The position numbers were made by a program, and so were the translations under genes. The notes under the pieces were generated by a model. It was not told where the DNA came from and ran no database searches. It saw nothing but the letters and a program-made list of their open reading frames with translations. This document shows positions 3,013 through 29,168 of a stretch of 64,000 nt of DNA, piece by piece (within the stretch, counting starts at the first letter, position 1; each line of letters begins with the position of its first letter). The stretch spans positions 5,142,100-5,206,099 of the forward strand of contig CBDCJV010000002.1 in the NCBI GenBank assembly GCA_965217895.1. The letters run 5' to 3'. This stretch comes from Waterburya sp. GTDB lineage: Bacteria; Cyanobacteriota; Cyanobacteriia; Cyanobacteriales; Xenococcaceae.

Positions 3013-5160
3013 ATGTCTATGGTTGACTTGTTGCGATATTGCGCTGGAATAACTTTATGGGCGTGTTTTCTACAAACATCTTCTTTAGCTTCGCAATTGT
3101 CTGAAGTTAAGACAAAAGCGAGTTTTCTGCCTAGCAAATTAAATTTATTAACCACGCAGCCAGATTCAGACATTACAACAAATTCTCCTCGTTATTTAAT
3201 TACTCAAGAACGTCAAGGTGAGCAAAGAAAATTTCAAATACCGACTAATCAGGAGTTTCAACCATCAATTCCCATTGAAGAAATTAAAGTAATCGAGGTA
3301 ATTGCCGATCGCCAAGAATATGACGAACAAAGAAAAGTAATTACGGCGAAAGGTAATGTAGTCATGCGTTTTGCTCAATCTGTCATGACTAGCGATCGCT
3401 TGGAAATAAATTTAAGCGATCGTCTTGCAGTTGCCAAGGGTAATGTCGTCCTTAAACGAGGTCAACAGGTATTGCGGGGAGCAAAGTTTGAATATTATCT
3501 AGTTAGCGATCGCGGTATGATTTTTAATGCCAGAGGCGAAATCTATCAGCCTAGTTTAAATCAAGATACCAACGTTAACCAAAGATTAGCACCAGAACAA
3601 ACAATCTTCGATCGGGCTTTGAGCGATCGCCTGATTAACGCCCAACCCTTAACAGGTGTAACTGCTGGTGAGGGTATTGGGGCTACTATAGGCAGCAGCA
3701 GAGATACAAATTTAGGAACTAGCAATAATTCTATAGGCGGGACAATTAATCGTCTGCGCTTTCAGGCTAATCGCTTAGACTTTGCTGGAACTAACTGGAA
3801 AGCAAGCAATCTGCGTCTGACTAACGATCCTTTTTCTCCGCCTGAACTAGAATTACGCGCCAAAACCGCTACTTTTGAGCAAGCTGCTCCTTTGGTAAAT
3901 AAACTGACTACCAAAAAGTCTCGTGTAGTAATTGACGATAGTTTAGCCTTACCACTTTTAGCTAGTACGTATGTCTTTGATGGTCGCCGTGGTCGAGGTG
4001 GTGGATTGTTTAGTCTGGGTTTTGACGGGCAAGACCGAGGCGGTTTATATATTGAGAGAACTTGGCGCATTCTTGACGGGACAAAATATAGCTGGAATAT
4101 TACTCCACAATACTTTTTAGAGCGAGCTTTATTTCCTACTACCTTTAGCTTTAGCAATGCTGAGGATGGAGGCTTTGATTTAGCAACGTTGGGCTTAAGA
4201 AGCGATTTTCAGGCAAATTTGACCCCCCGCAGCAATTTTGAAGCTAATTTTTCCTTAAGCAGCTTTAATTTTAATAATCTAGAAGATAATTTACGAGCCA
4301 AGGTTGGCATACAGCAAACCCTAGGTAATGTAGCTAATCCTTATACATTCGATCTGGCATACAACTATCGCGATCGCCTGTTTAATGGTTCTTTGGGCTT
4401 TCAAACAGTTAGAAGTAGTATTGGTGGGGTGCTGACTTCGCCAAATATTGCGATCGCTAATACTGGCGTTAATCTAAGATATCAGGCTTCAATTCAAAAC
4501 ATCAATGCCGATACCGATAGGCAAGACCTCTTTAACGTAGATAGAAACAATAACCGCATCAACCTTACTCGTTATCAGGGAGCGGTGTTTCTCAATAAAA
4601 GCTTTCCTATCTGGTCGGGAACAGCATTGCCAAGTAATCAATACCAAGGATTGCGCTATACTCCCGTGCCTGTAGTTCCCTATTTAGAAATATATACGGG
4701 AATTTCAGGAGTAGGTAGCTTTTATAGTAATAGTGATACTCAGCTATCTTTAGAAGGAACTATCGGTATTCAAGGGCAAATAGGTCACTTTTCTCGTTCT
4801 TGGCTCGACTATACAGGATTTAAGCTTGGTTACTCGCAAAATCTTCGTGGAGATGAATCGCCTTTTCTCTTTGATCGTTTAGTGGATCGTCAAGTTCTCG
4901 ATCTGGGATTGACTCAACAAATTTATGGACCAATTCGTTTGGGGGTTCAGACATCTATTGATTTAAATAATAATCAGGAAATCAGTACAGATTACCTTGT
5001 AGAATACAGTCGTCGAACTCACAATATTACTCTACGCTACAATCCCGTGTTACAAGTTGGTTCTTTTAGCCTCCGCATCAGCGACTTTAACTGGCAGGGA
5101 AATCCTCAACCTTTTGATAATGAAGGAATTAGCCCAGTTATTCAGGGAGTTAAACAATAA
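3013..5160 (+). CDS. LptD/OstA-like outer-membrane LPS assembly protein (DUF3769 type)
   Basis: OstA-like IEVIADRQEYD..AKGNVVMRF; TNDPFSPPELELRA; C-terminal YSRRT..LRYNPV..GSFSLRISDFNW. Confidence 0.8.
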   Translation: MSMVDLLRYCAGITLWACFLQTSSLASQLSEVKTKASFLPSKLNLLTTQPDSDITTNSPRYLITQERQGEQRKFQIPTNQEFQPSIPIEEIKVIEVIADRQEYDEQRKVITAKGNVVMRFAQSVMTSDRLEINLSDRLAVAKGNVVLKRGQQVLRGAKFEYYLVSDRGMIFNARGEIYQPSLNQDTNVNQRLAPEQTIFDRALSDRLINAQPLTGVTAGEGIGATIGSSRDTNLGTSNNSIGGTINRLRFQANRLDFAGTNWKASNLRLTNDPFSPPELELRAKTATFEQAAPLVNKLTTKKSRVVIDDSLALPLLASTYVFDGRRGRGGGLFSLGFDGQDRGGLYIERTWRILDGTKYSWNITPQYFLERALFPTTFSFSNAEDGGFDLATLGLRSDFQANLTPRSNFEANFSLSSFNFNNLEDNLRAKVGIQQTLGNVANPYTFDLAYNYRDRLFNGSLGFQTVRSSIGGVLTSPNIAIANTGVNLRYQASIQNINADTDRQDLFNVDRNNNRINLTRYQGAVFLNKSFPIWSGTALPSNQYQGLRYTPVPVVPYLEIYTGISGVGSFYSNSDTQLSLEGTIGIQGQIGHFSRSWLDYTGFKLGYSQNLRGDESPFLFDRLVDRQVLDLGLTQQIYGPIRLGVQTSIDLNNNQEISTDYLVEYSRRTHNITLRYNPVLQVGSFSLRISDFNWQGNPQPFDNEGISPVIQGVKQ

Positions 5161-5167
5161 CTAATAA

Positions 5168-5384
5168 CTTAAGTAGCAAGTAGCAGATAGCAGATAGCAA
5201 TGCTTTAAAGTAGTAATTAGCAGATAGCAGATAGCAATGCTTTAAAGTAGTAATTAGCAGATAGCAGATAGCAATGCTTTAAAGTAGCAAGTAGCAGATA
5301 GCAGATAGCAGATAGCAATGCTTTAAAGTAGTAATTAGCAATTAGCAGATAGCAATTAAGAAAGTTCAAAATTTGCTACTTAAG
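5168..5384 (+). repeat. Tandem array of ~37-bp units built from TAGCAGA/TAGCAAG heptamers, closed by a 12-bp inverted repeat
   Basis: Units at 5171, 5208, 5245 (37 bp), 5282 (44 bp) and 5326 (partial); CTTAAGTAGCAA (5168) / TTGCTACTTAAG (5373-5384). Confidence 0.92.
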
Positions 5385-5430
5385 TAAAGCTTGTCAATGA
5401 TAAAATTAAGTTACACAACTTAATTTTATC

Positions 5431-5650
5431 ATGAATAATCATAACATTTCGATACAAGATAGAACTAGAAATTTTGCGAATAGAGTAATAAAAGTCTATG
5501 TAGAATTAAACAAGAGAAAATACGATGATGCTGGTAAAGTTTTGTCTAAACAATTTCTTAGAAGTGGCACTAGCATTGGTGCAAACTGCTGTGAGGCTGA
5601 GTTCGCACAATCGAGAGCAGATTTTAGATCTAAACTAACTATTGCCTTAA
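5431..5650 (+). pseudogene. Four-helix-bundle protein (23S rRNA IVS / Avd-like family), 5' part, interrupted by integrated element
   Basis: RTRNFANRVI..LSKQFLRSGTSIGANCCEA..AQSRADFRSKLTIAL; family similarity stops at TTAAA 5647-5651. Confidence 0.9.
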
Positions 5651-5775
5651 ATTATATAACCCTCAATATTAATAATAAACAACAACAACAATGGTTGTAT
5701 TTTTTTCTGTTGAGTAAAGTTACAATTACCCAAATTCTATATTCTTTTACGAGTATTATGGTGTATAGTTAATAC

Positions 5776-6870
5776 ATGATGCTCACACTACAGAAAGGAA
5801 CTGACCCACACACAAATAAAACCATCTGGATAATGCTGGATGAAGACTATCAGGTAATCGAACCGATACAGCGTTATTTGACTTCTTTATGCGCTACCAA
5901 GTCGCCTAATACTGTACAAGCCTATGGAACAGATTTAAAGCGATGGTGGGAATTTCTCGACCATAAGTGCTTGGATTGGCGTAATGTAAATATTCATCAG
6001 GATTTAGAGGACTTTGCTTATTGGTTGAGAGTAGGAGATACAAAGGTGATTTCTCTACAGCCAGTAGAAGCCGATAGATCGGAGAAGACTATTAATAGAG
6101 CGATTACTGCTGTGTCAACTTTCTACGACTATCACCTGTGCAACCAAACAGTTGATTTTAGCGAGTTTGAGAGGTTTCATGCGATCTATAAAACGGGGAA
6201 CACCAGAGTCGGTACGACAGGTATATTGACTGGTATTGCCAAAGCAAAACCAACCAGGGAAAAGTTAGTCAAACTCAAAGAAACTAAGAAATTCCCAGGC
6301 TGTCTGACCGATGAGCAAATAGAAACATTAGTTGATGCCTGTAGCAATCTTAGGGACAAGCTAATGATTCTGATGTTTAACGGAACTGGCATACGTAAAG
6401 GTGCGCTTTGTGGCTTAAAACACGAAGACGTTGGGGATTTTGGAGATTACTTTATTCGAGTAGTCAGAAGAGAAGACAACCCTAATGGAGCATTAGTTAA
6501 GACAAAAGAGAGGACAATTCCAGTAACTAAGGAGCTGCTCCAACTATATGACGAGTACTTAATGAATGAGTATCCAGGCGTGGATTCAGAATATGTGTTT
6601 GTCAATATCTGGGAAGGGGATATCGGTGCGCCAATAATGCTGACATTGCCTAACAAAATACTTACAGGCTTGGAAGAAAAAACAGGTATTAGAGTTTATC
6701 CACATTTATTTAGACATACTTATGCCACTCGTCTTTTGAAAGCGGGATATTCACCAGAGAGAGTCAAATATTTGTTGGGTCACGCTAGTATTGCTACCAC
6801 TTTGGATGTCTATTCTCATGTCATCAACGAAACAAATCTATGGGAAGTAATCGAGAGAGAAGAAAAATGA
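5776..6870 (+). CDS. Tyrosine recombinase/integrase (TnpA-like)
   Basis: SPNTVQAYG SAM-like N-terminus; catalytic GIRKG, HLFRH, LGH...DVY. Confidence 0.93.
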   Translation: MMLTLQKGTDPHTNKTIWIMLDEDYQVIEPIQRYLTSLCATKSPNTVQAYGTDLKRWWEFLDHKCLDWRNVNIHQDLEDFAYWLRVGDTKVISLQPVEADRSEKTINRAITAVSTFYDYHLCNQTVDFSEFERFHAIYKTGNTRVGTTGILTGIAKAKPTREKLVKLKETKKFPGCLTDEQIETLVDACSNLRDKLMILMFNGTGIRKGALCGLKHEDVGDFGDYFIRVVRREDNPNGALVKTKERTIPVTKELLQLYDEYLMNEYPGVDSEYVFVNIWEGDIGAPIMLTLPNKILTGLEEKTGIRVYPHLFRHTYATRLLKAGYSPERVKYLLGHASIATTLDVYSHVINETNLWEVIEREEK

Positions 6871-8345
6871 GCTTAAATCAATTTGATTGGCTAGACGATT
6901 ATCAAGATCTATTTGAAGAAAAGCTACCGTCGCAATTATTATTAAATCCTCTGCTACAAAAAAATATATGGCATACAGTTAATGATTTAAACTTGAAGAT
7001 TAGTCCGCATCAAAAAGTATGGACTCTTAACTTTCAGAGTATTTCTCAAGATTGGTTTAGACTTCTTGTCAAGCTATACATATTAGTCAAAGCCAAACCA
7101 AATCAGCCTGGTAATACCATCAAAGGGTTTGTTATTTATTTGAGAGGATTCTCTAAGTTTTTAGACAAAAGAAATATTTACAGTCCCAAACATATAGATA
7201 ATCAAGTATTTGAAGAATTTGACTATTATCTAAAAGCTAAAGGGCTAAAAGATAGCTCTCTGGGACATTATCGAAGTACAATCTGCAATTTTTTCGATAC
7301 CTGCCGTACTGAAGGATGGATTGATGTTAATACTTATTGGTTTAGAGGCAAGCGCAACAGAGTTCATGTTAACAACGATGAAGTTGACTACATTCCCGAA
7401 GAAGTTTGGCATCAACTAGAAGAAAATCTACATTACTTGCCAGAACCAGTACAGAGGATGATCCTGGTAATAAAAACAACAGGTATTCGAGGTGGCGAAC
7501 TTTTAAATTTACCATTGGACTGTCTGAGGAAAAGAGGTAAGCAATGGAGGCTTCGTCTTACAACAGAGAAATACGACATTAAAGATGAAATACCAATAAC
7601 TGTTCCAGAATTAGTTGCAGTAATTAAAGAACAACAAAAATACATAAAACAAATTTTCGGTGATAAATTTGATAATTTATTTTGTAGCAATCATCCTGGT
7701 CATCATCGCAAAGATGGAACTCTTTCTTTTTCTCCTAACTCTAGTGTGATGAGTACAGGTACTTTTAACTTATGGCTGAATAGATTAGCCGAAAAAATTA
7801 ACATCCTTACTTCAGAAGGTGAAATCTACGAGTTTAAATCTCATCAATTTAGAAGGACAGTGGGTACTGTTATGACCAATGCAGGTGTCAGAGATTTAAT
7901 TGCTCAAAAATATCTCAGACATCGTAGTCCAGATATGTTGCCCCATTATCAACATCTTCTTAAGCAAACATTAGGAGATGAATTTGAGGAGTTGATTAAG
8001 GATAAAAAATATCATGATATATCGGGAAAAGTAGTCGAAATAATTAAAGGTAAAAATCCGATTACTGAATTTATTCGTCGCAAAATGTATCCTTTTACAA
8101 CCCAATACGGGGAATGCCATCGACCAATTTTAAAATCACCCTGTCAAACAGTTAATGCTTGCTGGAGATGCGAATATTGGCGAATAACCGATGGTGATTT
8201 GAATTATCTCAAAGAAGATTTTGCGAGAGTCGAGGAAGAATTAAAGGTAGCCAAAACACTTTCTATGACTAGGCAACAACAAGGATTAGAAGATGACAGG
8301 AATAACTTAAGTGCGATTATTCAAGGTGTAGAAGAAAACAGATGA
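6867..8345 (+). CDS. Tyrosine recombinase (TnpB of Tn554-like) with C-terminal Cys cluster
   Basis: TGIRGGEL, HQFRR, LRH.SPDM..HY; ECHR..PC...NACWRC; ATGA overlap with the upstream gene. Confidence 0.9.
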   Translation: MSLNQFDWLDDYQDLFEEKLPSQLLLNPLLQKNIWHTVNDLNLKISPHQKVWTLNFQSISQDWFRLLVKLYILVKAKPNQPGNTIKGFVIYLRGFSKFLDKRNIYSPKHIDNQVFEEFDYYLKAKGLKDSSLGHYRSTICNFFDTCRTEGWIDVNTYWFRGKRNRVHVNNDEVDYIPEEVWHQLEENLHYLPEPVQRMILVIKTTGIRGGELLNLPLDCLRKRGKQWRLRLTTEKYDIKDEIPITVPELVAVIKEQQKYIKQIFGDKFDNLFCSNHPGHHRKDGTLSFSPNSSVMSTGTFNLWLNRLAEKINILTSEGEIYEFKSHQFRRTVGTVMTNAGVRDLIAQKYLRHRSPDMLPHYQHLLKQTLGDEFEELIKDKKYHDISGKVVEIIKGKNPITEFIRRKMYPFTTQYGECHRPILKSPCQTVNACWRCEYWRITDGDLNYLKEDFARVEEELKVAKTLSMTRQQQGLEDDRNNLSAIIQGVEENR

Positions 8346-10120
8346 TGGAAATAAATTGGTCTAGAGATTATCAGCATGAATTTATTTGTCCTCATTGCGA
8401 TATTCAAGGTTTACGTTTAGCTGGCAAAGACAATTATACAAATAGGAAACTATTTAGATGCTCCAAATGTAGAAAAAGAATTTCTCAGTGTGTAAATATA
8501 AAATTTCCTAATAGTAATACTGGTATTAATTGGAACAAAGATTATAAAATAGGAGAGTTTGCTTGCCCCAATAAAGAATGTAATTCAAGGGATATCAGGC
8601 TTGCTAGCCAATCTAAAAAAAAGCAGCGTTTTACGTGTAATATTTGTGGAACTAAAACTAGAGAATCAATAGATCTTACGGAAAGCAATTTAGGTCAATA
8701 TGCTCATAAAAGACCAGTTAAGCCATTTTCTTTTCAAGACGATAAATGGGATATTAGGGCAATTAAATCACCAGCAAATAAACAAGAGAAGATTCTAATT
8801 GCTAACTTTCATACTGTAAAAACAAACTGGTTTAGAAATTTAACCAAGCACTACACATACCACCTCTGTAAGCTCAATAAACCTATAGGTGCAATTGAGT
8901 ATCATTTGATTAATCTTCGTATTTTTTCTCGGTATTTAGTAGAGAAAAATATAACTAATATAAATTTAATTAGCCGAAGTTTAATTCTTGATTTTCTCGC
9001 TTGGGATAATACGGGTGTAGACGCTACCAGAAAAAGACTCTCGACACTTAGAGATTTCTTCTGGACTGGTAATGTGCAGAATTGGTTTGTACTTGACCCA
9101 GATCTTGTAAGAGATAATGATTATCCTAAAGCGAAGGTAAGCAATCCTGACCCAATACCAGATAGCGTTCGAGAACAGATTGAAAGCAATTTACATAAGC
9201 TACCAGAGCCTATTGCTAGAATGTGGATTATTGCTTTTTTCACAGCAATGCGACCTGGAGAACTAGCTTTATTAAAGAAAGGCTGTTTGGTACAAGAGGG
9301 TAGCCACTGGAGCATTACTTGGCAACGTGGAAAAAACCGAGATTTTCACACAGTTCCAATTACAAGAATCATTGCCAAAGTAGTTCAAGAACAGCAGGAT
9401 TACATAGAGCAATTATGGGGAACTGAATGGGATTACTTGTTTTGTCATTATCAGCGACCTTCAAGCACAAGGCAATATAGCAATATAGATCCTGTTCAAA
9501 AAGTAATACCGAAAAATAATAGCCTGTTTTATGGAGCGATTGAATATCTAATCGAAACAGAAGATATTCGGGATGATAATGGTAAGTTAGCGACATTTAG
9601 TCCACATTTAATTAGGCATACACGCCTAACTCAATTATTTGAGCAAGGACACGACTTGTCAGTAGTTAGTGCATGGGCTGGACACAAAAGATTGGCAACA
9701 ACGAGTAATTTTTACACTCAAGTTAGTTGTGAACTAATTGAAAAAGAAGCAGGTCATATTCAAAAAGCTCTGTTTAATGCAGATGGTCAATACCATCAAT
9801 ATGAATCATTACCTAAATCCTTCTGGAAAGATCCTCAAGCTCATAAATTAGATCTTCCTGGCGACCATATTAACACACCTATTTATGGCTACTGTGGGCT
9901 ACCGTTAAATGAGCGTTGCAACAAGTTTAGAGCTTGTTATACTTGTCACTCTTTTGTTGCCTTCCCTGAGAAACTTGGACAATACATCAAACTCCGTGAT
10001 GAATTGAGAGCCAAAGAGTCACGAGCTTTAGCGAATGGTCAAGGTGTATTAGTAGAACAATTTAGTAGACAAGCCGACCAACTAGACAAAATAATTGCAT
10101 CGTTACAGGAGGCAGCATGA
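8342..10120 (+). CDS. Tyrosine recombinase with N-terminal zinc-ribbon repeats
   Basis: CPHC/CSKC/CPNKEC/CNIC; AMRPGEL, HLIRH, AGH..LATTSNFY; C-terminal YCGLP..CNKFRACYTC; ATGA overlap. Confidence 0.9.
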   Translation: MMEINWSRDYQHEFICPHCDIQGLRLAGKDNYTNRKLFRCSKCRKRISQCVNIKFPNSNTGINWNKDYKIGEFACPNKECNSRDIRLASQSKKKQRFTCNICGTKTRESIDLTESNLGQYAHKRPVKPFSFQDDKWDIRAIKSPANKQEKILIANFHTVKTNWFRNLTKHYTYHLCKLNKPIGAIEYHLINLRIFSRYLVEKNITNINLISRSLILDFLAWDNTGVDATRKRLSTLRDFFWTGNVQNWFVLDPDLVRDNDYPKAKVSNPDPIPDSVREQIESNLHKLPEPIARMWIIAFFTAMRPGELALLKKGCLVQEGSHWSITWQRGKNRDFHTVPITRIIAKVVQEQQDYIEQLWGTEWDYLFCHYQRPSSTRQYSNIDPVQKVIPKNNSLFYGAIEYLIETEDIRDDNGKLATFSPHLIRHTRLTQLFEQGHDLSVVSAWAGHKRLATTSNFYTQVSCELIEKEAGHIQKALFNADGQYHQYESLPKSFWKDPQAHKLDLPGDHINTPIYGYCGLPLNERCNKFRACYTCHSFVAFPEKLGQYIKLRDELRAKESRALANGQGVLVEQFSRQADQLDKIIASLQEAA

Positions 10121-10962
10121 GCAGCGGTAACGATGATACAAGAGAGTTTAGAGTCAATAACCTCAAAAAGACTCAGGAACAGAGGAAGCAAGAATCTCAG
10201 GATCGAGTTTATCAAGCTATTGAGCGATTGCAGAAACTCAATGCCAAGATCAACTTTCACACTATAGCTAGAGAAGCGCAGGTTAGTGTTAGTTATCTCT
10301 ATAAATATCCAGAGATAAAGCAACATATAGGAGTGCTAAGAAGCAAACAAAACTCTTTACCTGTTTCTCCTGTAGCCAAACCTAATTCTACGTCTCATGG
10401 CAAAGTAGTCACCCGTCTTCAAGAGAGAATCAAAAAGCTGGAAGCGGAGAATAAAGAACTCAAACGTAAGTGTGAAGCTTTAGCTGGTCAAGTTTATCGA
10501 GTTCATTATTTGGAATCTCAGGTAGAAAGATTACAGAAACAAAATGAAGACTTGAAAAGTAAATTGGGCGAACAAGAAATTGCCAGAAAAGTTACACCTA
10601 TTGACAAAAAGAGAAAGACCAAATCTGCTGCTTTCAAGGATGTCCAATCGGAATTAGATGAGCTGGGAATTACTCTGAATCCAACTCTCACTAAAACTAT
10701 TAAGGTAGCCAGCGAAGAAACTGTATTAGCTGCAATTGAAGCACTCAAAGAGCAATCTTTCAAACAAGATATTCCTAACCCTGGCGGTTGGCTGAACAAG
10801 GCAATCAAAGAAGGTTGGATAAAAGCAGAACCCACCTCTAGTAAGCCATCAGTTTCCCCACAACCAAAAATCGTTACTGCTACAGATAAAGCAAATAAGA
10901 AATTAATTTCTCCTAACAAGCTCAAGCAATTAAGCAATTTATTCAACAATCAAGATGACTGA
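10117..10962 (+). CDS. TnpC/DUF6262-like coiled-coil DNA-binding protein with extra C-terminal domain
   Basis: AIERLQKLNAKINFHTIAREAQVSVSYLYKYPEIK plus a long coiled coil; C-terminal NPGGWLNKAIKEGW; ATGA overlap. Confidence 0.75.
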   Translation: MSSGNDDTREFRVNNLKKTQEQRKQESQDRVYQAIERLQKLNAKINFHTIAREAQVSVSYLYKYPEIKQHIGVLRSKQNSLPVSPVAKPNSTSHGKVVTRLQERIKKLEAENKELKRKCEALAGQVYRVHYLESQVERLQKQNEDLKSKLGEQEIARKVTPIDKKRKTKSAAFKDVQSELDELGITLNPTLTKTIKVASEETVLAAIEALKEQSFKQDIPNPGGWLNKAIKEGWIKAEPTSSKPSVSPQPKIVTATDKANKKLISPNKLKQLSNLFNNQDD

Positions 10963-12274
10963 TAACAAATTCCCCCCCACTAACATAGAAGCTGAAGAAG
11001 CCATATTAGGAAGCATTTTATTTGACCCTGGTGCTATTAGTATTGCTGCTTCTATCCTCCCTGTTGAGGCATTTTATGTTGCTGCCCATCGTCATATTTA
11101 CAAAGCAGCATTAGAGTTACATAATAAAGACAAGTTGACAGACTTTATGGGCATTTCTACTTGGTTAAAAGACCATAAATCATTAACTAAAGCAGGAGGT
11201 ACAGCCAAGTTATCTCAACTGCTTAATCGTACTGTCTCAGCAACTAATATTGACCGCTACATTAATCTGGCTTTAGAAAAGTATCAGCGTCGTCAACTCA
11301 TAGCAACAGCTAATGAAATTGAGGCTTTGGGATATGATAATGCTACCGAACTAGAAACAGTTTTCAATACCTCAGAAGAGAAAATATTTAACCTTACTAC
11401 CAACAAGCAAGACAAATTCAAACCTATACCGATTGACGATTGTCTGGCATCAGTATTCAACAAAATAGAACAAGGTTCATCTCCTGCCTATTCTACTGGA
11501 TTAGATGATTTAGATGCTCTGATTGGGGGATTAATTAAACAAGATTTGATTGTAATTGCTGCTAGAGCTTCTATGGGCAAAACTTGGTTGGCTTGCCATC
11601 TGGCTAATCACATTGCCAGCGAGCAACAAAAGCCTGTAGTCTTCTTCTCGGCTGAGATGTCGAGCGAACAGCTAACTAAAAGATTCCTCTCAATGCACTC
11701 TGGTATTGATTCTCATAGGCTAATACACAATGAAATTTACGAGGATGAATATGATGTTTTAGTTAATGGTTTGACTCAATTGGCTGAATTACCTATCATC
11801 ATCGACGATACTCCTGCTACTCAGCTAACACCTTCTAAAGTTCGTTCTGTCCTGCGCAGAATCGTTTCTGAGAAAGGCGAACTAGGCTTAGTAGTCTTAG
11901 ATTATATTCAGAAGCTTGGCGACAGAGCAGCAGGGAATAGAGCGCAGACAGTAGGTAAGTTTTCAGGGGCATTTAAAGACATTGCTAAAGAGTTTGACGT
12001 TCCTTTTGTGGCATTGGCTCAAATCAATCGAGGTGTTGAATCTCAGGCAAATAAACGCCCTTTAATGTCTGATATAAAAGACAGTGGTGATATCGAGCAG
12101 GACATGGATTTGGGTTTGATGCTGTATCGGGACGATTACTACAACGATGATACTGACAACTTAAGCATAATGGAGATAATTGTAGGAAAGAATCGTAACG
12201 GTGGAACAGGGACTTGTAAAATTTTGTTTGAGCTAGATACAGGGATTTTCAAAAGTTTAAACAGTGTAAAATAA
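10955..12274 (+). CDS. dnaB: Replicative DNA helicase DnaB (element-borne copy)
   Basis: PPTNIEAEEAILGSIL; Walker A AARASMGKT; SAEMS; VVLDYIQ; AQINRGVE..KRPLMSDIKDSGDIEQD; KNRNG. Confidence 0.93.
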   Translation: MTDNKFPPTNIEAEEAILGSILFDPGAISIAASILPVEAFYVAAHRHIYKAALELHNKDKLTDFMGISTWLKDHKSLTKAGGTAKLSQLLNRTVSATNIDRYINLALEKYQRRQLIATANEIEALGYDNATELETVFNTSEEKIFNLTTNKQDKFKPIPIDDCLASVFNKIEQGSSPAYSTGLDDLDALIGGLIKQDLIVIAARASMGKTWLACHLANHIASEQQKPVVFFSAEMSSEQLTKRFLSMHSGIDSHRLIHNEIYEDEYDVLVNGLTQLAELPIIIDDTPATQLTPSKVRSVLRRIVSEKGELGLVVLDYIQKLGDRAAGNRAQTVGKFSGAFKDIAKEFDVPFVALAQINRGVESQANKRPLMSDIKDSGDIEQDMDLGLMLYRDDYYNDDTDNLSIMEIIVGKNRNGGTGTCKILFELDTGIFKSLNSVK

Positions 12275-12398
12275 TCGCAAGTAATTCAATATATTTTAAT
12301 ATATATTAAACAGTACAAATGTATACTAGACTAGGCTTCCTAGTTTGCAACTCTGAAGTGAGCATTGAATTTACAATTATTTTTTATAAGAATTTTAA

Positions 12399-14444
12399 AT
12401 GATAACCACAGATATATTTAACACAGATGTTGTAAACAAAGTTAGAAAGATAAAGCTCCCTATTTCCAAAGTTATGCTTCCATTATTTGAAGCAGTAGTA
12501 AATTCAATTCAATCTATTGAAGAAGTTAAAAAAGAAAGCATCAAAGATGGTGTTATTCAAGTTATTATCAACAGACCTTTTGAGGAGATAAGACTTCTTG
12601 ACGGTGGAGATACCTCTCCAGTAGAAGGATTTACTGTTATAGACAATGGAATAGGGTTTAATACGCAAAATTATAAATCTTTTCTAACTGCGGATAGCTC
12701 ACACAAACTTGTCAAAGGATCTAAAGGTGTAGGTAGATTCTTATGGCTAAAAGCATTTACAAATGTAGAAGTAGAAAGCTATTACCAAGAATTAGGAAAA
12801 TACTATCATCGTAAATTTAATTTTACAAGTGCAGAAAAACCAATATCTTTTCATGAAAATAAAGTTATTGATTCTACAGATATTAAAAATAAGACTACTA
12901 TTAAGCTGAAAGGTCTACAAGGTCACTATAAAATAAAATGTCCTCAAGATATAGAAAAAATAGGACTTAAAATCTTTGAGCATTGTATTTCATATTTTTT
13001 ACTAGAAAATGTCCCTACTATAGAAGTTATTGACGGAGAAAAGAGTCTAGATATTAATAAATTCTTTGCTGAGGATATAAAAAAATATACTGAAACTAAA
13101 GACATTAACATTGGAAAATGTAATTTTAATATTAAAAGCCTTAGATTTTATAACAGCAGTACATCCGATCACAGACTATTTTTCTGTGGACATCAGAGAG
13201 TAGTTTTAGATGAAGATCTCAGTCAGTATATAGTTGACTTATCACCTACAAGAAAAATCAGAGATGAAAATGGAAAGTTGTTTAAGTATTTAGCTTTTGT
13301 TTCTGGAGAATATTTAGACAATAATGTTAACTCTGAAAGAACTAGCTTTACTATCTCTGAAGATTATGATTTGTTGACTTCTAAAGAGTTTGGAGATGTA
13401 TCTTTTTATGATCTTAAAATGGCAGTAACAGAAGTTATTGACAATACATTGTCTCCATATCTCAAACAAATACAAGAAAACAAAATAGAAAGGTTTAAAC
13501 AGTATATTCGGAAAGATGCTCCCGAATATCGTCCTTTATTAAAATATGCTTCAAAAGAATTAGAGCATCTTTCTCCTAGTTTAAATGATACTCAGCTTGA
13601 GTTTCAGCTACATGGATTAATGTCCCAGTTTGAGATTTCATTAAAAGAGACTGGAAAACAAATATTAAGCGATCCAATTGATTGCTTTGAAAAATATCCT
13701 GAATATAGTCAGAAATATCACGAATTTTTAGAGCAGTACACAGATTTTGGTCAGGCAAAATTAGCAAAATACGTAGTTCACAGAAAAATAATTCTGGAAC
13801 TTTTCAAGAAAAATCTTAGAAAAGATGATGACGGCAGATTTAAGCTTGAAAAGGATATTCACGAAATAATTTTTCCTTTGAGACGAACATCTGATGAGAT
13901 CAATTTTGATGAGCAAAACCTTTGGATTATTGATGAAAGGCTAACATATCATAGATATTTATCTTCAGATCAGGCATTAGATAGTCTAGAAGATCTAAGT
14001 GTAAATAGTACTAGACGACCAGACCTACTTGTATTCAATAATCCTATAGCTTTGGTGGAAGGAGAACAACAGCCTTACTCTTCCGTAGTTATAGTTGAAT
14101 TTAAACGTCCTATGAGAGATGGTTATTCTGAAAAAGAAAATCCAGTAACTCAAGTTTACGATTATGTAAGAAAAATCCAGTCTGGCAATTATGAAGACGA
14201 GAACGGTAGGCTAATAAGCCTAGCAAATAGCACTCCCTTTTATGTATACATAATTTGTGATTTAACATCGAAAATAAAAGAATTTGCTGAAAATGCCACT
14301 TTTTTCCCGACACCAGATTTAGGGGGATATTTTGGATACAATACAAGACTTAATACTTACGTCGAGATTATTTCTTTCACAAAATTAATCAATGATGCAG
14401 AAAAAAGAAATAGTGTATTGTTTAAGAAACTTCATATAAATTAA
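12399..14444 (+). CDS. GHKL (HSP90/MutL-like) ATPase fused to a C-terminal PD-(D/E)xK-type nuclease; candidate defence protein
   Basis: LFEAVVNSIQS, IDNGIGF, GSKGVGRF (Bergerat fold); RPDLLVF..VIVEFKRP..TQVYDY. Confidence 0.75.
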   Translation: MITTDIFNTDVVNKVRKIKLPISKVMLPLFEAVVNSIQSIEEVKKESIKDGVIQVIINRPFEEIRLLDGGDTSPVEGFTVIDNGIGFNTQNYKSFLTADSSHKLVKGSKGVGRFLWLKAFTNVEVESYYQELGKYYHRKFNFTSAEKPISFHENKVIDSTDIKNKTTIKLKGLQGHYKIKCPQDIEKIGLKIFEHCISYFLLENVPTIEVIDGEKSLDINKFFAEDIKKYTETKDINIGKCNFNIKSLRFYNSSTSDHRLFFCGHQRVVLDEDLSQYIVDLSPTRKIRDENGKLFKYLAFVSGEYLDNNVNSERTSFTISEDYDLLTSKEFGDVSFYDLKMAVTEVIDNTLSPYLKQIQENKIERFKQYIRKDAPEYRPLLKYASKELEHLSPSLNDTQLEFQLHGLMSQFEISLKETGKQILSDPIDCFEKYPEYSQKYHEFLEQYTDFGQAKLAKYVVHRKIILELFKKNLRKDDDGRFKLEKDIHEIIFPLRRTSDEINFDEQNLWIIDERLTYHRYLSSDQALDSLEDLSVNSTRRPDLLVFNNPIALVEGEQQPYSSVVIVEFKRPMRDGYSEKENPVTQVYDYVRKIQSGNYEDENGRLISLANSTPFYVYIICDLTSKIKEFAENATFFPTPDLGGYFGYNTRLNTYVEIISFTKLINDAEKRNSVLFKKLHIN

Positions 14445-14524
14445 AAACTTATCGTATAAAGTATATACAACGATATAATCTATGTCACAAAATATGTGTG
14501 GAATTTTTAGGTCATATAATTTAA

Positions 14525-14667
14525 AAGAAGCAAGTGAAACTCGCTACTGGATATTACTTTTAATTGATAATAATATTGTCTCAGAAACAAAATTGGCAAT
14601 GATGCTAGATGAATTAAATCAAATAATAAAAATTCTGATTGTAACAACGAAAAAGCTGAAAGAGTAA
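14525..14667 (+). pseudogene. Four-helix-bundle protein, 3' part
   Basis: (K)EASETRYWILLL..ELNQIIKIL..KKLKE* continues KLTIAL; the join gives 120 aa. Confidence 0.9.
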
Positions 14668-14717
14668 TTGCTACTTGTTATCTGCTATCTGCTACTTTAA
14701 AGCATTGCTACTTTAAA
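14665..14717 (-). repeat. Heptamer/37-mer array inverted relative to 5171-5360
   Basis: TAATTGCTACTTGTTATCTGCTATCTGCTACTTTAAAGCATTGCTACTTTAAA. Confidence 0.9.
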
Positions 14718-14725
14718 CCCATTTA

Positions 14726-15478
14726 TTACTCGATAAAAACAAAGTAGCTTAGAGTACACACAGTAAAAATCAAAAATAGATTAACAATAAGCTGTACTTT
14801 AATAGCCAAACTAGTACTTTTTTCAAACTGATTCATTTGATGTCTCAAACGATCGAGCCTGAATTGCAGATTGGCATCTCGCTCTCTACGCAGAGACATT
14901 TCTTGTTTAACAATACTTTCTACGGTTTCGTTTAGGTTGTGGGGCGTTAACTGTTCAAATATACTAACTTTTTGTTCGATTTTAGCCAAAACCTTATCAA
15001 CGACGTTTAATTTATGGCTTAGGGCAGAATCTTGTGGCAAAGAGTTTTCTGTTGTAGACTTGCTAAAGTGTTTTTCTACCAATTTCAACGCTAATTGGAA
15101 ATAGCCTTTGTGAACGTGTCTAATTGCATCGGCTAATTCTTGGGCAGTGGTGTTTTTTAGCCAATAGCCTTTTGCCCCCAACTCCAAAGCATCAGCAATA
15201 TCCTGCTTTCGGTCATGGATACTAAGCATTAGAACTTTGGTATCGGCAAATTTTTGGGCAATGGCTTTGGTAGCAGCAAAACCATCCATCACTGGCATCT
15301 CAATATCCATTAAAACTATGTCTGGCTTGAGTTTTTCTACCTGAGCGATCGCAATTTCTCCGTTTTCAGCAAAACCAATTACATTTAGGTCTAACTCTGA
15401 TTCTAAATATGATGCTAAAGTTTTGCGGACAAAATTTTGATCATCGGCTATAAGGACATTAATCATCGCCATCTTCAT
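14726..15478 (-). CDS. Response regulator receiver protein with coiled coil and C-terminal TM helix
   Basis: VLIADDQ..PDIVLMDIEMPVMDG..GAKGYWLK; hydrophobic C-terminus; start uncertain. Confidence 0.85.
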   Translation of the reverse strand: MKMAMINVLIADDQNFVRKTLASYLESELDLNVIGFAENGEIAIAQVEKLKPDIVLMDIEMPVMDGFAATKAIAQKFADTKVLMLSIHDRKQDIADALELGAKGYWLKNTTAQELADAIRHVHKGYFQLALKLVEKHFSKSTTENSLPQDSALSHKLNVVDKVLAKIEQKVSIFEQLTPHNLNETVESIVKQEMSLRRERDANLQFRLDRLRHQMNQFEKSTSLAIKVQLIVNLFLIFTVCTLSYFVFIE

Positions 15479-15756
15479 CTCTATTCTTGGTAAATTAAAC
15501 AAGTTTTGAAAAACTATCGAAAAACTGACCAAATTATAATGTATAAATCTCTAGTTGAAGTATTAACAATTTATTAGCAAAGTACATCTCGAAAATAAGT
15601 TTGGTTTTAAGCTTTAAATCGTCAACGTAAGATCTTAAGTAATATAGGGTAATTGAATGTTAGCTTCATGACAATAGACTTAAAATAAAAACAAGCTTAA
15701 ATAGCCTTTTATCGGCGGTAATCTCCATATACCATATACTAGAATCAATAATCATT

Positions 15757-18700
15757 GTGACTTCACTATCCTTGTTATCTAATGTTGAACAATTTTTAGA
15801 ATATTGCAGTCATTCTAGTGCCGATGCTTTTGCTGCCTTTAGCGAACTTTTAAATAGCTTGAAATCTCCTGAGACGCAGGCTCAAAATAGGCGGTTTTTT
15901 GGCTTAATTTATCAGACTTGGCAGTCGAAAAATCAGCAAGATTATTACTTTTCTTTTGTTACTCAAACGGTTAAAACCTATAGTGGCGATCGCCGTGAGC
16001 TTTTACTTTTATTATTTCCCAGTATTTTTGCCCCTGAAGAATGGTCGTTTACCTTTTATGAAGGCATATTACGCTATCCTGCCGAGGAATTTTATACCCG
16101 TCGGGTGGTAGAGTTAGGCTGTGGCAGTGGCTGGATTACTCTGGCGATCGCCTTAAATTCTTTGCCTGAAGTTATCTATGGAGTTGATATCAATCCACGG
16201 GCGATCGTCTGTTCGCAATTAAATCTATATTTGAACGCTTTAGACGAACAGGGAAATCCCATTTTAGATAGGGAACAAAAGACTTTAATTGACCGCGTTA
16301 AATTTGCTCAATCAGATTTACTAGAATTTTTTGACGATTATCCTCATCCCCTCGATCGCATTGTGGGCTGTATTCCTCAAGTACTCAATCCAGAATTGGA
16401 AGTAATGCGAGATTTGGTTAATCAAGGTGCTAATGACGAATTTCTCCATTCTTTGAGCAATTATTGCGAAAAACAGGGCTATGTAGAAGATCAATTTGGC
16501 TTAGGCTTGTTAGCTAAGGCGATCGAGCAGTCAATTCAATTACTCAGACCTACGGGTAAAGTTCTCTTTAACTTTGGGGGCAGACCAGGTGCATCAGTAC
16601 TAGAGCGATTGATGACTAGAAGAGGGTTAGAAATTCGCCATATCTGGCAAACCAGAGTCGAACAAGATCCTGATACGGATATTTCTAGCTTAGTAAAGAT
16701 CGAACAGGCTACAGGTCATCGGTTTGAGTTTTTTATGACCTCCCGTAGTAATGTGCCAATTAGTGCTGCTACCGCCCAAGTTTACAGCCAGCATGGAGGC
16801 AGAATATATCACTCTGTCTCCGTATACGAAGGGGTTTTGGCTTATCCTAACTGGCTCAAGCAAATTTTCGCCGTACTACAGCATCCTAGTTTGCAGGGGG
16901 TAAAAAGCGCACTAGATTTGACGGAAAATGATGCAGATGTGGCAGAAGAAAGATTTTACTGGCTAGCATCCTTATTTAGTTATCTTAATAACCAGAGCCA
17001 TTTTCCCTATGGACTGACAGCAGGAGAACCAGGATTACGCGATCGCATTACGGCTTATTTTCGCAACTATCATTCAATTCTTTGGCAGCCTGATGATTTA
17101 ATTATTACCCCATCTAGAAAAGAACTAATTGCTAATCTGTTAACAATTTATGAGCCATCGTTAATTGTTATCGATGAGGGATTACAGCAGCTACTACCCG
17201 TAAGTTGGCATGGCAGTCAGCAGGTTATTGAAGCACCGCGACGCATCCCCTTAGTTGGCAAATTAATGGTCAAGCTACGTCCGCAGCTTGTAATTACAGG
17301 ACTCAAAGCTTTTGAAATGACTGCACAAGAGCCTTTTGAATCTTTAGTCAATACAGCCAAAGAAATTGGCGCACTATTGATAGTGGATATTTCTGATAAT
17401 TTAAATCTTTCTAGCAACCCCGTTGATAATGGTTTGTTTGAATATCTAGCAGATCGCGGCTTGCCCGATCATGTAATTTTAGTTGCAGACTCGATCAAAA
17501 ATAGACTTTATCCAAGCTTATCTTTATGTATCTGCATAACTAACTCAGAGCCAATTCAACAAGACTTAATTAGAGCAGCAGAGTTGAGCTACAGTCGCGT
17601 TTGCCTGATTACCCAATATTTCTATCAGCAGCTTTTAGAACAGTTATTACACTTCCAGACTACCAGAGTGCAGCCAGCTAATAGGGAGCTTGATAAGTCT
17701 CAAAGCTTTTTTACCTTAGATCGTTCAGCCAATGCCACAAGAGCCTTTGCTCATCCTGCAATTAAAGAAAGTGAATTACCTTTTAAACCATCAACTATTC
17801 GCCTAGACTATGGTGAAAACTGTTTGCCATCTCCTAAAGCACTCAATAAAGCGATCGCCGAAGCCTTTGCCAGACAGGAGATCACCTCAGAAGAATGTGA
17901 AGTATACAAACCCCTATCTGCTATCTGTTCGCAAAAATACGGAATTAAATACGGCGATCGCGATAATTTTATTTATGGTTCAGGAGTAGCATCATTATTT
18001 AGTGCGGTGGTGCAGCAATGCCGTCAAGAACAAGGAGCTTTTATCTTTCCCCAAGGTGCTTACGGTTATTTCCGAGCAACCCTAGATTTCTATGGAGTTG
18101 GAGTACAAACGGTATTGGGAAACCCAGCCCAAGGTTTTAAAATCGATTTATCTAACCTAGAACAGATTCTCAAAACCACTGCTAATCCTTGGCTTTATCT
18201 TAATGCACCCATTTCTAATCCCACAGGAGCGTTATATTCTGCTCCAGAATTACAGTCAATTATTCAATTAGCTTGGCGGTATCAAGCAAAAGTTGTCTTA
18301 GACACGATTTTTTCTGGTCTAGAATTTGACCAGTCCCAACCCAAAACTGATTTATCATGGCTGCAAGATCGCCGTCACAGCAACTCTAGTAACTTAATCT
18401 TACTAGGTGGCATTTCCAAGGAATTTTCCGCAGCAGGGATACGTTTTGGCTATTTATATTCTCCCAGTGCCACTATAGTTAGACAAATAGCAGAATTTAT
18501 TCCTGGTCAGCTTCCCCAGACTACTATGTATGCTATGCGTCGATTTTTTGAGGGGGTGGTCAAAGACGATGCTGAACTTATTCAACATAGAGAAGCTCAG
18601 AGTCAACTTCTACAGCAAAGAGCCAAACAGCTAACAGCAGTATTGCAGCAATCTGGTTGGACAGCCATTGACCCACGAGGCGGATTGTTTTTAGTAGCAA

Positions 18701-18945
18701 AACCAAGTTTCCTCTTAGGCAAAACAGTATCTTACAAACAAGATAATGTTAGATATGAGACAGTCATTGATGGAGATTCTATTACTACCGTTTTATTTTC
18801 AAGTGTTGGACTAACGATCAATGGTGCTACCTGGACTGGGTTGCCAAACTATTGCCGTTTTGTCTTATCAGTTTCCGAATCTGAGTTTCAGGAGGCTTTG
18901 CAGCGAATTAAAGAGTTTTACAGTTCATTTGAGGTTGAACTATAG
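15757..18945 (+). CDS. Methionine S-methyltransferase, plant-type two-domain (SAM methyltransferase + PLP aminotransferase-like)
   Basis: PSIFAPEEWSFTFYEG, ELGCGSGWI, YGVDINPRA, RIVGCIPQVLNP, SLSNYC..QGYVEDQFGLGL, FNFGGRPG; C-terminal ISNPTGALYS, LDTIFSGL, GGISKEFSAAGIRFG. Confidence 0.88.
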   Translation: MTSLSLLSNVEQFLEYCSHSSADAFAAFSELLNSLKSPETQAQNRRFFGLIYQTWQSKNQQDYYFSFVTQTVKTYSGDRRELLLLLFPSIFAPEEWSFTFYEGILRYPAEEFYTRRVVELGCGSGWITLAIALNSLPEVIYGVDINPRAIVCSQLNLYLNALDEQGNPILDREQKTLIDRVKFAQSDLLEFFDDYPHPLDRIVGCIPQVLNPELEVMRDLVNQGANDEFLHSLSNYCEKQGYVEDQFGLGLLAKAIEQSIQLLRPTGKVLFNFGGRPGASVLERLMTRRGLEIRHIWQTRVEQDPDTDISSLVKIEQATGHRFEFFMTSRSNVPISAATAQVYSQHGGRIYHSVSVYEGVLAYPNWLKQIFAVLQHPSLQGVKSALDLTENDADVAEERFYWLASLFSYLNNQSHFPYGLTAGEPGLRDRITAYFRNYHSILWQPDDLIITPSRKELIANLLTIYEPSLIVIDEGLQQLLPVSWHGSQQVIEAPRRIPLVGKLMVKLRPQLVITGLKAFEMTAQEPFESLVNTAKEIGALLIVDISDNLNLSSNPVDNGLFEYLADRGLPDHVILVADSIKNRLYPSLSLCICITNSEPIQQDLIRAAELSYSRVCLITQYFYQQLLEQLLHFQTTRVQPANRELDKSQSFFTLDRSANATRAFAHPAIKESELPFKPSTIRLDYGENCLPSPKALNKAIAEAFARQEITSEECEVYKPLSAICSQKYGIKYGDRDNFIYGSGVASLFSAVVQQCRQEQGAFIFPQGAYGYFRATLDFYGVGVQTVLGNPAQGFKIDLSNLEQILKTTANPWLYLNAPISNPTGALYSAPELQSIIQLAWRYQAKVVLDTIFSGLEFDQSQPKTDLSWLQDRRHSNSSNLILLGGISKEFSAAGIRFGYLYSPSATIVRQIAEFIPGQLPQTTMYAMRRFFEGVVKDDAELIQHREAQSQLLQQRAKQLTAVLQQSGWTAIDPRGGLFLVAKPSFLLGKTVSYKQDNVRYETVIDGDSITTVLFSSVGLTINGATWTGLPNYCRFVLSVSESEFQEALQRIKEFYSSFEVEL

Positions 18946-27707: not shown

Positions 27708-29168
27708 ATGGATAGCGTCAAAACAATTATACAAAGCTTACTGATCTCGATGGGGGATTTAACACATCCTCAAAAGAAATTTATCTTGACCTTATTTTCA
27801 ACTCTGCTTGTAGGTTGCGGTAGAGCTAATTTTGTTAACTTAAGTCGTTATAGTCAAATCAGTGAGCGAACATATCGGCGACAATATCAACGTTCTTTTA
27901 ACTTCATCCAATTCAACCAAAAGCTAATAGAGCAAGCAATTGACTCTAAATCAGAGGTAATCCTAGCGGTAGACTGTTCTTTTATTCCCAAAAGTGGAAA
28001 ACGAACCTATGGTCTGGATCGCTTTTACAACGGCAGTGCATCAAGAGCAGAGAAAGGATTAGAGATTTCGGCAATGGCAGTAGTAGATGTAGGCAAAAAA
28101 AGGGGATACAGCCTCAGTGTTCAGCAAACACCAGCCAAGAACTCATCTTTAGAGAAAAATGAGCAACCAGAAACGACTAGGATTAATCACTATCTAGCTC
28201 AATTAGAAGTAACTGTTCCTTATTTACCCAGCTCCTTTGGAGCAAAAGTAACAAGTAGCAGATAACAGATAGCAATTAAGTAACTCCGAAGTTGGTCTAA
28301 AGCGCAGAGCCTGAAAGGCTCAGATCGTCGTCGAAGACGACTGGCAACGCGCAAGCGTTGCGCTCTTTAAAGACGAAAAAAAATAAAACACATTTCTTTG
28401 TTTCAATCCTCTTGTTTTAACGAGAGGTAAAATTGCTACTTGCTACTTGCTACTTGCTACTTGTGAACCAGCTCCCTTCGCTATGTAGTCAGTGATGGAT
28501 TCTACAGCAAAATTAAATGGGTCGAAGGAGTCACCAACCTCAAGCTAGAAGCAATCGGAAAATTACGACGGGATGCCAATTTACGTTATCCCAACCGAGA
28601 AGAATATTCAGGAAGAGGACGACCTCGTAAGTATGGCAAAAAAGTCGATTTAACCAACCAAAATAACTTTGAGTTGGTCACTCAATTATCTAACGGTATA
28701 GATCTTTACACCGCCGTTGTTTGGTCTATCAGTCTTAAACGCCAAGTTCGGATAGTCTATTTACTCAATAATTCAGCTTCTTCAAGCTATGCTGTTTTAT
28801 TTTGCACTCATCTTGAGCTTGATGCTTACTCGATTTATCTCTACTATAAATCTCGCTTCCAAATCGAGTTTGTGTTTCGTGATAGTAAACAGTTTACAGG
28901 GTTAGCTGATTGTCAGGCTCGCGATCTAAGCAAGCTTGATTTTCATTTTAATGCTTCACTCACTGCGCTCAATCTTGCCAAATTGGATACTGTTCAACAG
29001 CATAATTGTTCGACTAATTTTGTTTTTTCAATGGCAAGTTACAAACGCCGTGCGCTTAACTACCATCTGCTTGAACGATTTATTGACAAGTTAGATCTAG
29101 AGCCTACTTTAATTAAATCCCATCCCAATTACTCAAACCTTTATGACTACGGAGCTATTGCTGCCTAA
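27708..29168 (+). pseudogene. DDE transposase interrupted by a 240-bp insert; removal restores a 406-aa ORF
   Basis: AVDCSFIPKSGK..; join reads YLPSS|LRYVVSDGFYS; YKSRFQIEFVFRDSKQFTGL. Confidence 0.9.
28236..28475. mobile_element. 240-bp non-coding insert with heptamer-repeat inverted arms and an 8-bp duplication
   Basis: CCAGCTCC at 28228-28235 and 28468-28475; arms AAGTAACAAGTAGCAGATAACAGATAGCAATT / AATTGCTACT(TGCTACT)3; three-hairpin core. Confidence 0.85.

Follow-up and report, generated by a model that had tools for sequence, protein, structure and literature searches.

The 64,000-nt stretch of DNA analysed here (the window, in whose own coordinates positions are given) comes from the cyanobacterium Waterburya sp. 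(GenBank assembly GCA_965217895.1, contig CBDCJV010000002.1, positions 5,142,100 to 5,206,099) and contains a gene of the four-helix-bundle family PF05635 that is bracketed by inverted arrays of 7-base repeats, or arms, and split by an 8,871-bp island. By comparative evidence, the gene with its arms is a mobile unit, as an earlier note made from the letters of the window had proposed. Our preferred explanation, to which we assign a probability of about 0.55, is that this unit would be a non-autonomous cassette that depends on borrowed enzymes for its movement and encodes a protein binding to its own heptamer, and that the cassette was split here by a codon-homing island of the GInt type. In what follows, G000 is the genome holding the window, other G numbers denote compared genomes, and L numbers denote compared loci.

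The case for mobility starts from the site itself. The cassette lies between a DUF3769/LptD-like gene on its left (3013..5160, plus strand; PF12600, E=1e-184), which is present in 37 of the 39 genus genomes, and a response regulator gene on its right (14726..15532, minus strand; PF00072). Among the 30 genus loci at the DUF3769 gene, the neighbourhood of the window is kept only in G017, G023, G019 and G020. In the sisters G017 and G023, the response regulator gene directly adjoins the DUF3769 gene, and neither the four-helix-bundle gene nor the TAGCAAG arms are found at this site; the empty sites that the earlier note had suggested looking for between these two neighbours are thus present. The same split cassette occupies this site in G019, and in G020 (L254, C1:4057600-4068600) the whole 9.5-kb unit of cassette and island is inverted relative to G000 and G019. 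Because window positions 5227-14697 align with G020 in the orientation opposite to that of the two flanks, the break points are located in the arms.

Beyond this site, homologs with the TAGCAAG unit occupy other, unrelated loci (in G022, G053, G024 and G641, and at L232). Matches to three consecutive TAGCARR units number 109, 85 and 24 in the three carriers, compared to 0 and 9 in the sisters G017 and G023, and G053, which carries a gene with the same unit, has 129. Gene-less arm pairs exist as well: contigs of sample S1, a mixed sample represented by contigs only, which drop rare forms, join window position 5378 to position 14711 across 30 other bases, that is, a gene-less form that retains the left-arm closure of the cassette. 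At one further locus (L253, G022:C45:5000-6300), a family gene with the same unit, 83% identical to that of the window, has approximately codons 34-77 replaced by an inward-facing pair of its own arms of about 95 nt.

The association between gene and arms extends across the family. From 73 family open reading frames (ORFs) found in relatives, 6 that are split by islands or short of flanking sequence were excluded; when two or more matched inverted units were required on each side, 46 of the remaining 67 have arms, compared to 6 of 1,200 random control ORFs of G000, and the direct-orientation control yielded 7 of 67. Thus, the co-occurrence of arms and family genes proposed as a check holds, and the view that the arrays are generic repeats next to a gene that is syntenic without arms in relatives is at odds both with this enrichment and with the joint loss of gene and arms in the sisters. 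Between proteins that are 70-80% identical, the arm unit changes on both sides together. All four family genes of G000 are armed, each with a different unit (read downstream of the genes, AAAGCTA, TAACTAC, TGCTTAA-like and TTGCTAC). These four resident units account for 132 of the 618 other arrays of G000 exactly and for 344 within one mismatch; random quartets drawn from 43 units of relatives account for means of 20 and 128, respectively, and none of 5,000 draws reached the observed values. Close pairs of arrays on opposite strands in G000 are inward-facing in 30 cases and outward-facing in none.

Several single loci add to the picture of the family. In one protein clade (L029, L030, L031, L032 and L034), the arm units, as read by eye, have 8 or 9 bases rather than 7. 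The region at C2:1413977 of G000 holds an internally deleted family gene with TAACGAG-type arms, the relic of a fifth cassette. An apparently chimeric family gene (L126/L169, G017:C7:30174-30463) has a CATTGAG-type arm upstream and a TAAAAAG-type arm downstream, which suggests recombination between two cassettes. In addition, TAGCAAG arrays of variable length occur at a fixed inner position in at least five unrelated miniature-element families of G000, none of which showed an array-free member in that genome.

At the locus of the window, the left arm (5167..5360, plus strand) consists of TAGCAAG and TAGCAGA heptamers amplified as a 37-bp higher-order unit (array 5171-5356, period 37) and terminates in GATAGCAATTAAG at 5348-5360; it is shorter in G019 and different in G020. 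A short inverted copy (5374..5385, minus strand), forming a 12-bp inverted repeat with 5167-5178, closes the left array, and a similar inverted unit precedes the gene in several homologs. The right arm (14666..14712, minus strand) is an inverted heptamer array that starts with AATTGCTACTTG at 14666, within the stop codon at 14665-14667. The 37-bp units upstream, the inverted array at the stop codon and the 12-bp inverted repeat, all described in the earlier note, are accordingly present in the sequence. The longest exact match between the two arms, which are now 9.3 kb apart, is 21 bp, and the predicted arm-arm duplex has an energy of -63.7 kcal/mol, compared to -23.6 +/- 3.5 kcal/mol when the left arm was replaced by 300 mononucleotide-shuffled versions.

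The earlier note had further supposed that the transcript of the unit folds into a long terminal stem, which we consider doubtful. An extended -10-like box, read from the sequence as the predicted promoter of the gene, lies at 5398..5406 (plus strand), and 13 of 29 clade members have a -10-like hexamer behind the arm; a promoter scan returned 3 sites, with 3.5 expected, and the box at 5398-5406 is not among them. Given the position of this box between the left arm and the start codon, that arm would be absent from the gene's own transcript (duplex energy -6.7 kcal/mol), so that a terminal stem would require read-through from the upstream gene.

The gene was recognised as a four-helix-bundle family member in the earlier note, and the family match stands; the coding sequence is, however, not intact but is cut in two by the island after codon 73. 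Codons 1-73 lie at 5431..5649 (plus strand; PF05635 positions 4-66, TIGR02436 positions 2-62, PDB 2RLD with E=1e-12), and codons 74-120 with the stop codon lie at 14524..14667 (plus strand; PF05635 67-104, TIGR02436 63-109), such that the two halves match consecutive parts of both profiles. This copy is very likely inactive. In G019 (L100/L255), codon 57 in the 5' half of the gene at the same site is in addition a stop, as would be expected if the gene decayed once the island had arrived. The structure matched by the sequence of the gene, 2RLD, has five chains; a single-sequence structure model of an intact homolog is helical, with a mean confidence score (pLDDT) of 48, too poor for a structure search.

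The island (5650..14520, plus strand) has short AT-rich inverted ends and is accompanied by a 3-bp duplication of codon 73. Its gene order is that of a GInt: tyrosine recombinase 1 (5776..6870, 364 aa; PF00589 and PF02899, with the catalytic R-H-R-H-Y read from the sequence), tyrosine recombinase 2 (6840..8345, about 500 aa; PF00589), tyrosine recombinase 3 (8342..10120, 592 aa; PF00589) and a DUF6262 protein in the GinD/TnpC position (10117..10962; PF19776, E=2e-12), in overlapping frames. These are followed by a DnaB-like helicase (10955..12274), identified by profile searches and comparison, and by a 681-aa HATPase-domain cargo protein of unknown function (12399..14444; weak match to PF13589, and unnamed ATP-binding clusters), all on the plus strand; 76 bp of AT-rich sequence after the cargo gene complete the 3' end. 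Several related islands (L213, L215, L219, L220 and L229) also have a DnaB-like helicase, 59-88% identical, behind their four core genes, and hence this gene may belong to the element rather than being random cargo. A defence role for the cargo was considered and dropped: PADLOC gave no match for the recombinases or the HATPase protein and only weak ones for the DUF6262 and DnaB-like proteins.

The island is single-copy in G000, and its insertions elsewhere repeatedly hit the same codon. Three island copies with 100% identical proteins reside in G019, where each interrupts a family gene of its own at that same codon, and two of these target genes are 45-48% identical to the gene of the window. 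Contigs of sample S1 join the left end of the island to two further paralogs at that codon, over 35-39 matching bases. Together, five paralogs (that of the window, two in G019 and two on S1 contigs) have same-codon insertions, and a relative of the island, with a recombinase 1 that is 93% identical, occupies the same codon in a sixth (L232); the island of L071/L212 (92%) lies at another codon of a family gene. The depth of the island in sample S1 is about 2.7 times that of its flanks, which in a mixed sample is no more than a hint, and no circle junction was found among the loose ends of the S1 contigs.

Among the other related islands, those whose left end could be read lie outside family genes; the targets among them that could be named by eye are tnpB, methylase, IS4 transposase, P-loop and integrase genes. 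In the relatives that target other genes, recombinase 1 is 84-92% identical to that of the window, whereas recombinase 2, which diverges with the target gene, is 46-52% and recombinase 3 52-58% identical; between two methylase-targeting islands, recombinase 2 is 97% identical. The combination of a 92% identical recombinase 1 with an approximately 52% identical recombinase 2 in islands found in other genes suggests a swappable targeting module, and recombinases 2 and 3 likely choose the target. When the island was searched for a stretch copying the target in the manner of a guide, only local matches at chance level turned up.

The earlier note had also put the cassette forward as a possible coding version of a non-coding insert 28 kb into the window, bounded by the same two arm junctions. 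The insert spans 28228..28467 (plus strand), directly behind TTAC at 28224-28227, and not 28236-28475. The junction words do recur there, at 28268-28280 and 28431-28442, but they are not private to the two loci, occurring 25 and 23 times in the genome. The insert (240 bp; fold z=-6.5) is a miniature element with ends of the IS605 type and the same heptamer arms, and it belongs to a family of 26 copies, 164-359 bp long as measured from the left hairpin, at sites with 15 distinct right flanks. All 26 copies have TTAC before them, an AAAG guide, hairpins and a fixed right end in TGAA; the spacing of guide and hairpins to the cleavage sites is abnormal. An 8-bp target duplication at the insert was discarded as a feature of the family, being seen at only 1 of the 15 distinct sites. 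The cassette lacks such a pair of IS605-type ends and shares with the insert only the unit and the short junction words, so that the proposed kinship does not hold; nearer gene-less relatives of the cassette form another family with IS605 ends.

Part of such an end does delimit the cassette. Its right edge is an IS605-family left end (14711..14732, minus strand), in which the AAAG guide is kept and the hairpin is lost, which supplies the stop codon of the response regulator gene and beside which TTAT (14733-14736) replaces the TTAC target; more of it is kept in G020. The same left end heads an element in G049 (L188) with a tnpB-like ORF identified by eye, as well as many gene-less elements that have paired arms of several units just inside both hairpins. 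A paralog of the four-helix-bundle gene, at C2:1097700, has both IS605 ends, and 8 of the 9 IS605-type right ends of G000 judged real, among 21 pattern matches, abut heptamer arrays of several units.

As for the enzymes, PF01797 matches were found in 3 of 5 sister genomes, and the Y1 genes of G019, G023 and G054 do not have ends matching the 26-copy family; a parent element with a transposase for this family was not found in 61 genomes of the host's taxonomic family. The only Y1 match in G000, at C2:2354836, is frameshifted and has inverted GGTGGGCA-type repeats downstream; by its motifs, it looks like a transposase associated with repetitive extragenic palindromes. The IS701-family element, the transposase gene of which is split by the 240-bp insert, occurs in three near-identical copies (window 27708-29168; G000 C2:4960712; and C1:45686, on a small contig), and since no uninterrupted full copy was found, it spread after being split.

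With a view to whether the protein reads the repeat, residues and units were compared in the 35 clade members with units starting with TA, the units being taken from computed counts with some manual phasing. Glu at residue 57 is accompanied by C at base 4 of the unit in 6 of 6 cases, and other residues by bases other than C in 29 of 29; a purine accompanies Lys or Arg in 6 of 10, and T accompanies Ile, Val, Leu or Phe in 17 of 18, an ambiguous row having been omitted. On the best tree, computed with the residue column masked, both traits change three times. Among rows examined after the prediction, which are kin of the first set, C-type arms were found in 3 of 4 with Glu, the miss being a pseudogene, and were absent from 12 of 13 without Glu; a phylum-wide search for further clade members added one new row. 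We treat the link between Glu and C as a lead that is suggestive only.

Under the explanation we prefer, the protein would be pentameric like its relatives (PMC4990558, in the part of that paper available) and would bind tandem units as single-stranded nucleic acid, with one unit per subunit, from which it would follow that protein and unit change together. The cassette, encoding no enzyme, would move by host recombination or by resident transposon ends, here an IS605-family end. After loss of the gene, arm pairs and arrays would persist and, multiplied by miniature-transposon families, become the commonest heptamer repeats of the genome. For the island, in turn, the gene would serve as a landing pad that is present in multiple copies and dispensable. 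A bolder form of this proposal is conceivable, although we would bet against it: the rings would recognise specific sequences through a residue-to-base code and would seed or extend their own heptamer arrays, each paralog would found a family of cyanobacterial short tandemly repeated repetitive (STRR) sequences, and the cassettes would be so common and dispensable that a lineage of three-recombinase islands was retargeted to the conserved codon by swapping recombinases 2 and 3.

A number of observations weigh against the preferred explanation. At the site of the window, there is no clean insertion junction, no target duplication is seen, and about 60 bp of the spacer of the sisters are missing; no IS605 right end was found at the left edge of the cassette in G000, G019 or G020, and a search with PF01797 found no intact IS200/IS605 transposase in G000. 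Across the family, 21 of the 67 ORFs fall under the arm threshold, some of them with 8- or 9-base units or at contig ends. In G049 (119 TAGCARR matches) and in G014, G015, G013 and G011 (16-37), all fragmented assemblies, no TAGCAAG-armed gene was found, and the test of resident units covers one genome in which many arrays were multiplied inside miniature transposons. The link between residue and base was found after the fact; it amounts to one independent pair on well-supported branches, does not reach significance, is blurred by two mixed rows (L283 and L333), and does not carry over to the clades with TCA and TTC units; a general code across all clades was not found. Moreover, because arms and gene are physically linked, shared descent alone would yield agreement between clade and unit.

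The most serious rival, which we hold to be unlikely, is that slippage-prone repeats are passively inherited with the gene, unread by its protein, and that the arrays across the genome stem from miniature transposons alone. In its favour, most TAGCAAG arrays of G000 lie within a handful of miniature-element families, array-rich genomes exist in which the matching gene was not found, and the statistics of the residue-base link fall short, as noted above. It leaves unexplained, however, why inward-facing inverted arms flank the majority of the family genes, why the unit changes on both sides between moderately diverged proteins, and why residue and base agree in the new rows. Less likely again is an element or regulator acting at the level of RNA, in which the arms would pair in a read-through transcript and RNase III would excise the unit, or the protein ring would serve as an mRNA attenuator, the mobility of the DNA being incidental. 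In its favour, the arms can form the duplex described above, the gene upstream shares the strand, Coxiella's intervening sequence (IVS) has stem heptamers and is cut by RNase III (according to the text consulted of PMC4990558), and Avd binds RNA (10.1101/2023.10.23.563531, within the portion available); nevertheless, the -10-like box behind the left arm would exclude that arm from the transcript of the gene, and the cassette is gained, lost and inverted as DNA and lies outside rRNA, with no Rfam match in 4500-30000.

The least probable rival casts the cassette as a non-autonomous IS200/IS605 element in which the gene is carried as cargo and the arms belong to the transposon. The IS605 left end at the right edge of the cassette, the paralog with both ends and the right ends abutting heptamer arrays all speak for it, and for single loci this interpretation stands. 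IS605-end motifs are, however, not enriched at family genes, being found near 8 of 146 family loci compared to 142 of 4,164 control ORFs, with both ends in only 2 (likewise in only 2 of 73 under strict patterns), and the cassettes with the same unit in G022, G053, G024 and G641 have arms without such ends. As a general vehicle, IS605 ends are thus rejected and as a general route largely refuted, and we regard them as an occasional vehicle of the cassettes.

The closest published parallel to the armed gene is the IVS of the 23S rRNA of Coxiella burnetii, which bears an S23p ORF (PF05635), has heptamers in its stem and is cut by RNase III (PMC4990558, from the text available); it is also the only printed case of heptamers beside this gene family that we found, subscription journals lying outside the search. 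Both have a PF05635 gene between complementary ends, tandem heptamers of variable copy number before the ORF (GACAGAT in Coxiella) and a gene that tends to decay (same part of PMC4990558). In contrast to the IVS, the cassette lies between two protein genes, and its kin occupy many unrelated intergenic loci, with a unit for each paralog, inversion and loss at the level of DNA and splitting by an island. The arrays resemble the STRR or heptameric repeats of cyanobacteria and Xanthomonas in being intergenic tandem heptamers, often in convergent pairs (PMC4692102 and PMC4679880, in their main texts); those texts leave the origin of the repeats unexplained and link them to no protein family, with 'four helix' and 'intervening' occurring 0 times. 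Avd, the accessory protein of diversity-generating retroelements, is a pentameric barrel similar to S23 proteins; crevices between its protomers are where it binds the bases of RNA (10.1101/2023.10.23.563531, in the text available). Unlike in such retroelements, no reverse transcriptase, template or variable region was found among the ORFs scanned around the four-helix-bundle gene.

The 26-copy family corresponds to IS608 and the IS200/IS605 group (as far as the available text of PMC3201880 describes them) in its position 3' of TTAC, the AAAG guide before the left hairpin, the right hairpin, the fixed right cleavage word and the lack of target duplication; it differs in being gene-less, in its right end TGAA and in having heptamer arms that put a long distance between both cleavage sites and the hairpins, compared to 19 and 10 nt in IS608. 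GInts are ginABCD islands that insert site-specifically into a conserved gene and also into its divergent homologs, such as those of ssb (PMC5385486, main text, for this and the following comparisons). The island shares with them the three tyrosine recombinases and the TnpC-like fourth gene at the 5' end, the cargo, a short AT-rich end and the mode of insertion, a match of layout known here from gene order and domains. It differs in that short AT-rich repeats in inverted orientation, together with a 3-bp duplication, form its ends instead of imperfect direct repeats of 10-17 nt, all three recombinases keep the first Arg, and the target is hit mid-gene and disrupted. Because the flanking direct repeats of GInts are missing, we call the island GInt-type rather than filing it as a member. 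The abstract, results and discussion of PMC5385486 mention neither cyanobacteria nor this target gene, and beyond that paper the literature searched, which excluded subscription journals, yielded nothing on targeting of the GInt type. Apart from these elements, the window encodes, at 15757-18945, a 1,062-aa fusion of a methyltransferase domain with a class I/II aminotransferase.

Taken together, the evidence for mobility, the targeting island and the residue-base lead are what the present analysis adds. A large protein family of unknown function gains a candidate ligand, its own flanking heptamer, together with a candidate specificity residue. The locus supplies natural experiments, in the form of sisters that lack the cassette, a copy in flipped orientation and derivatives that have lost the gene, and the island finds the same codon in genes that are only 45-50% identical. 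If the explanation is true, it would account for where cyanobacteria obtain their tandem heptamers and would tie this family to 7-base repeats that have so far gone unexplained.

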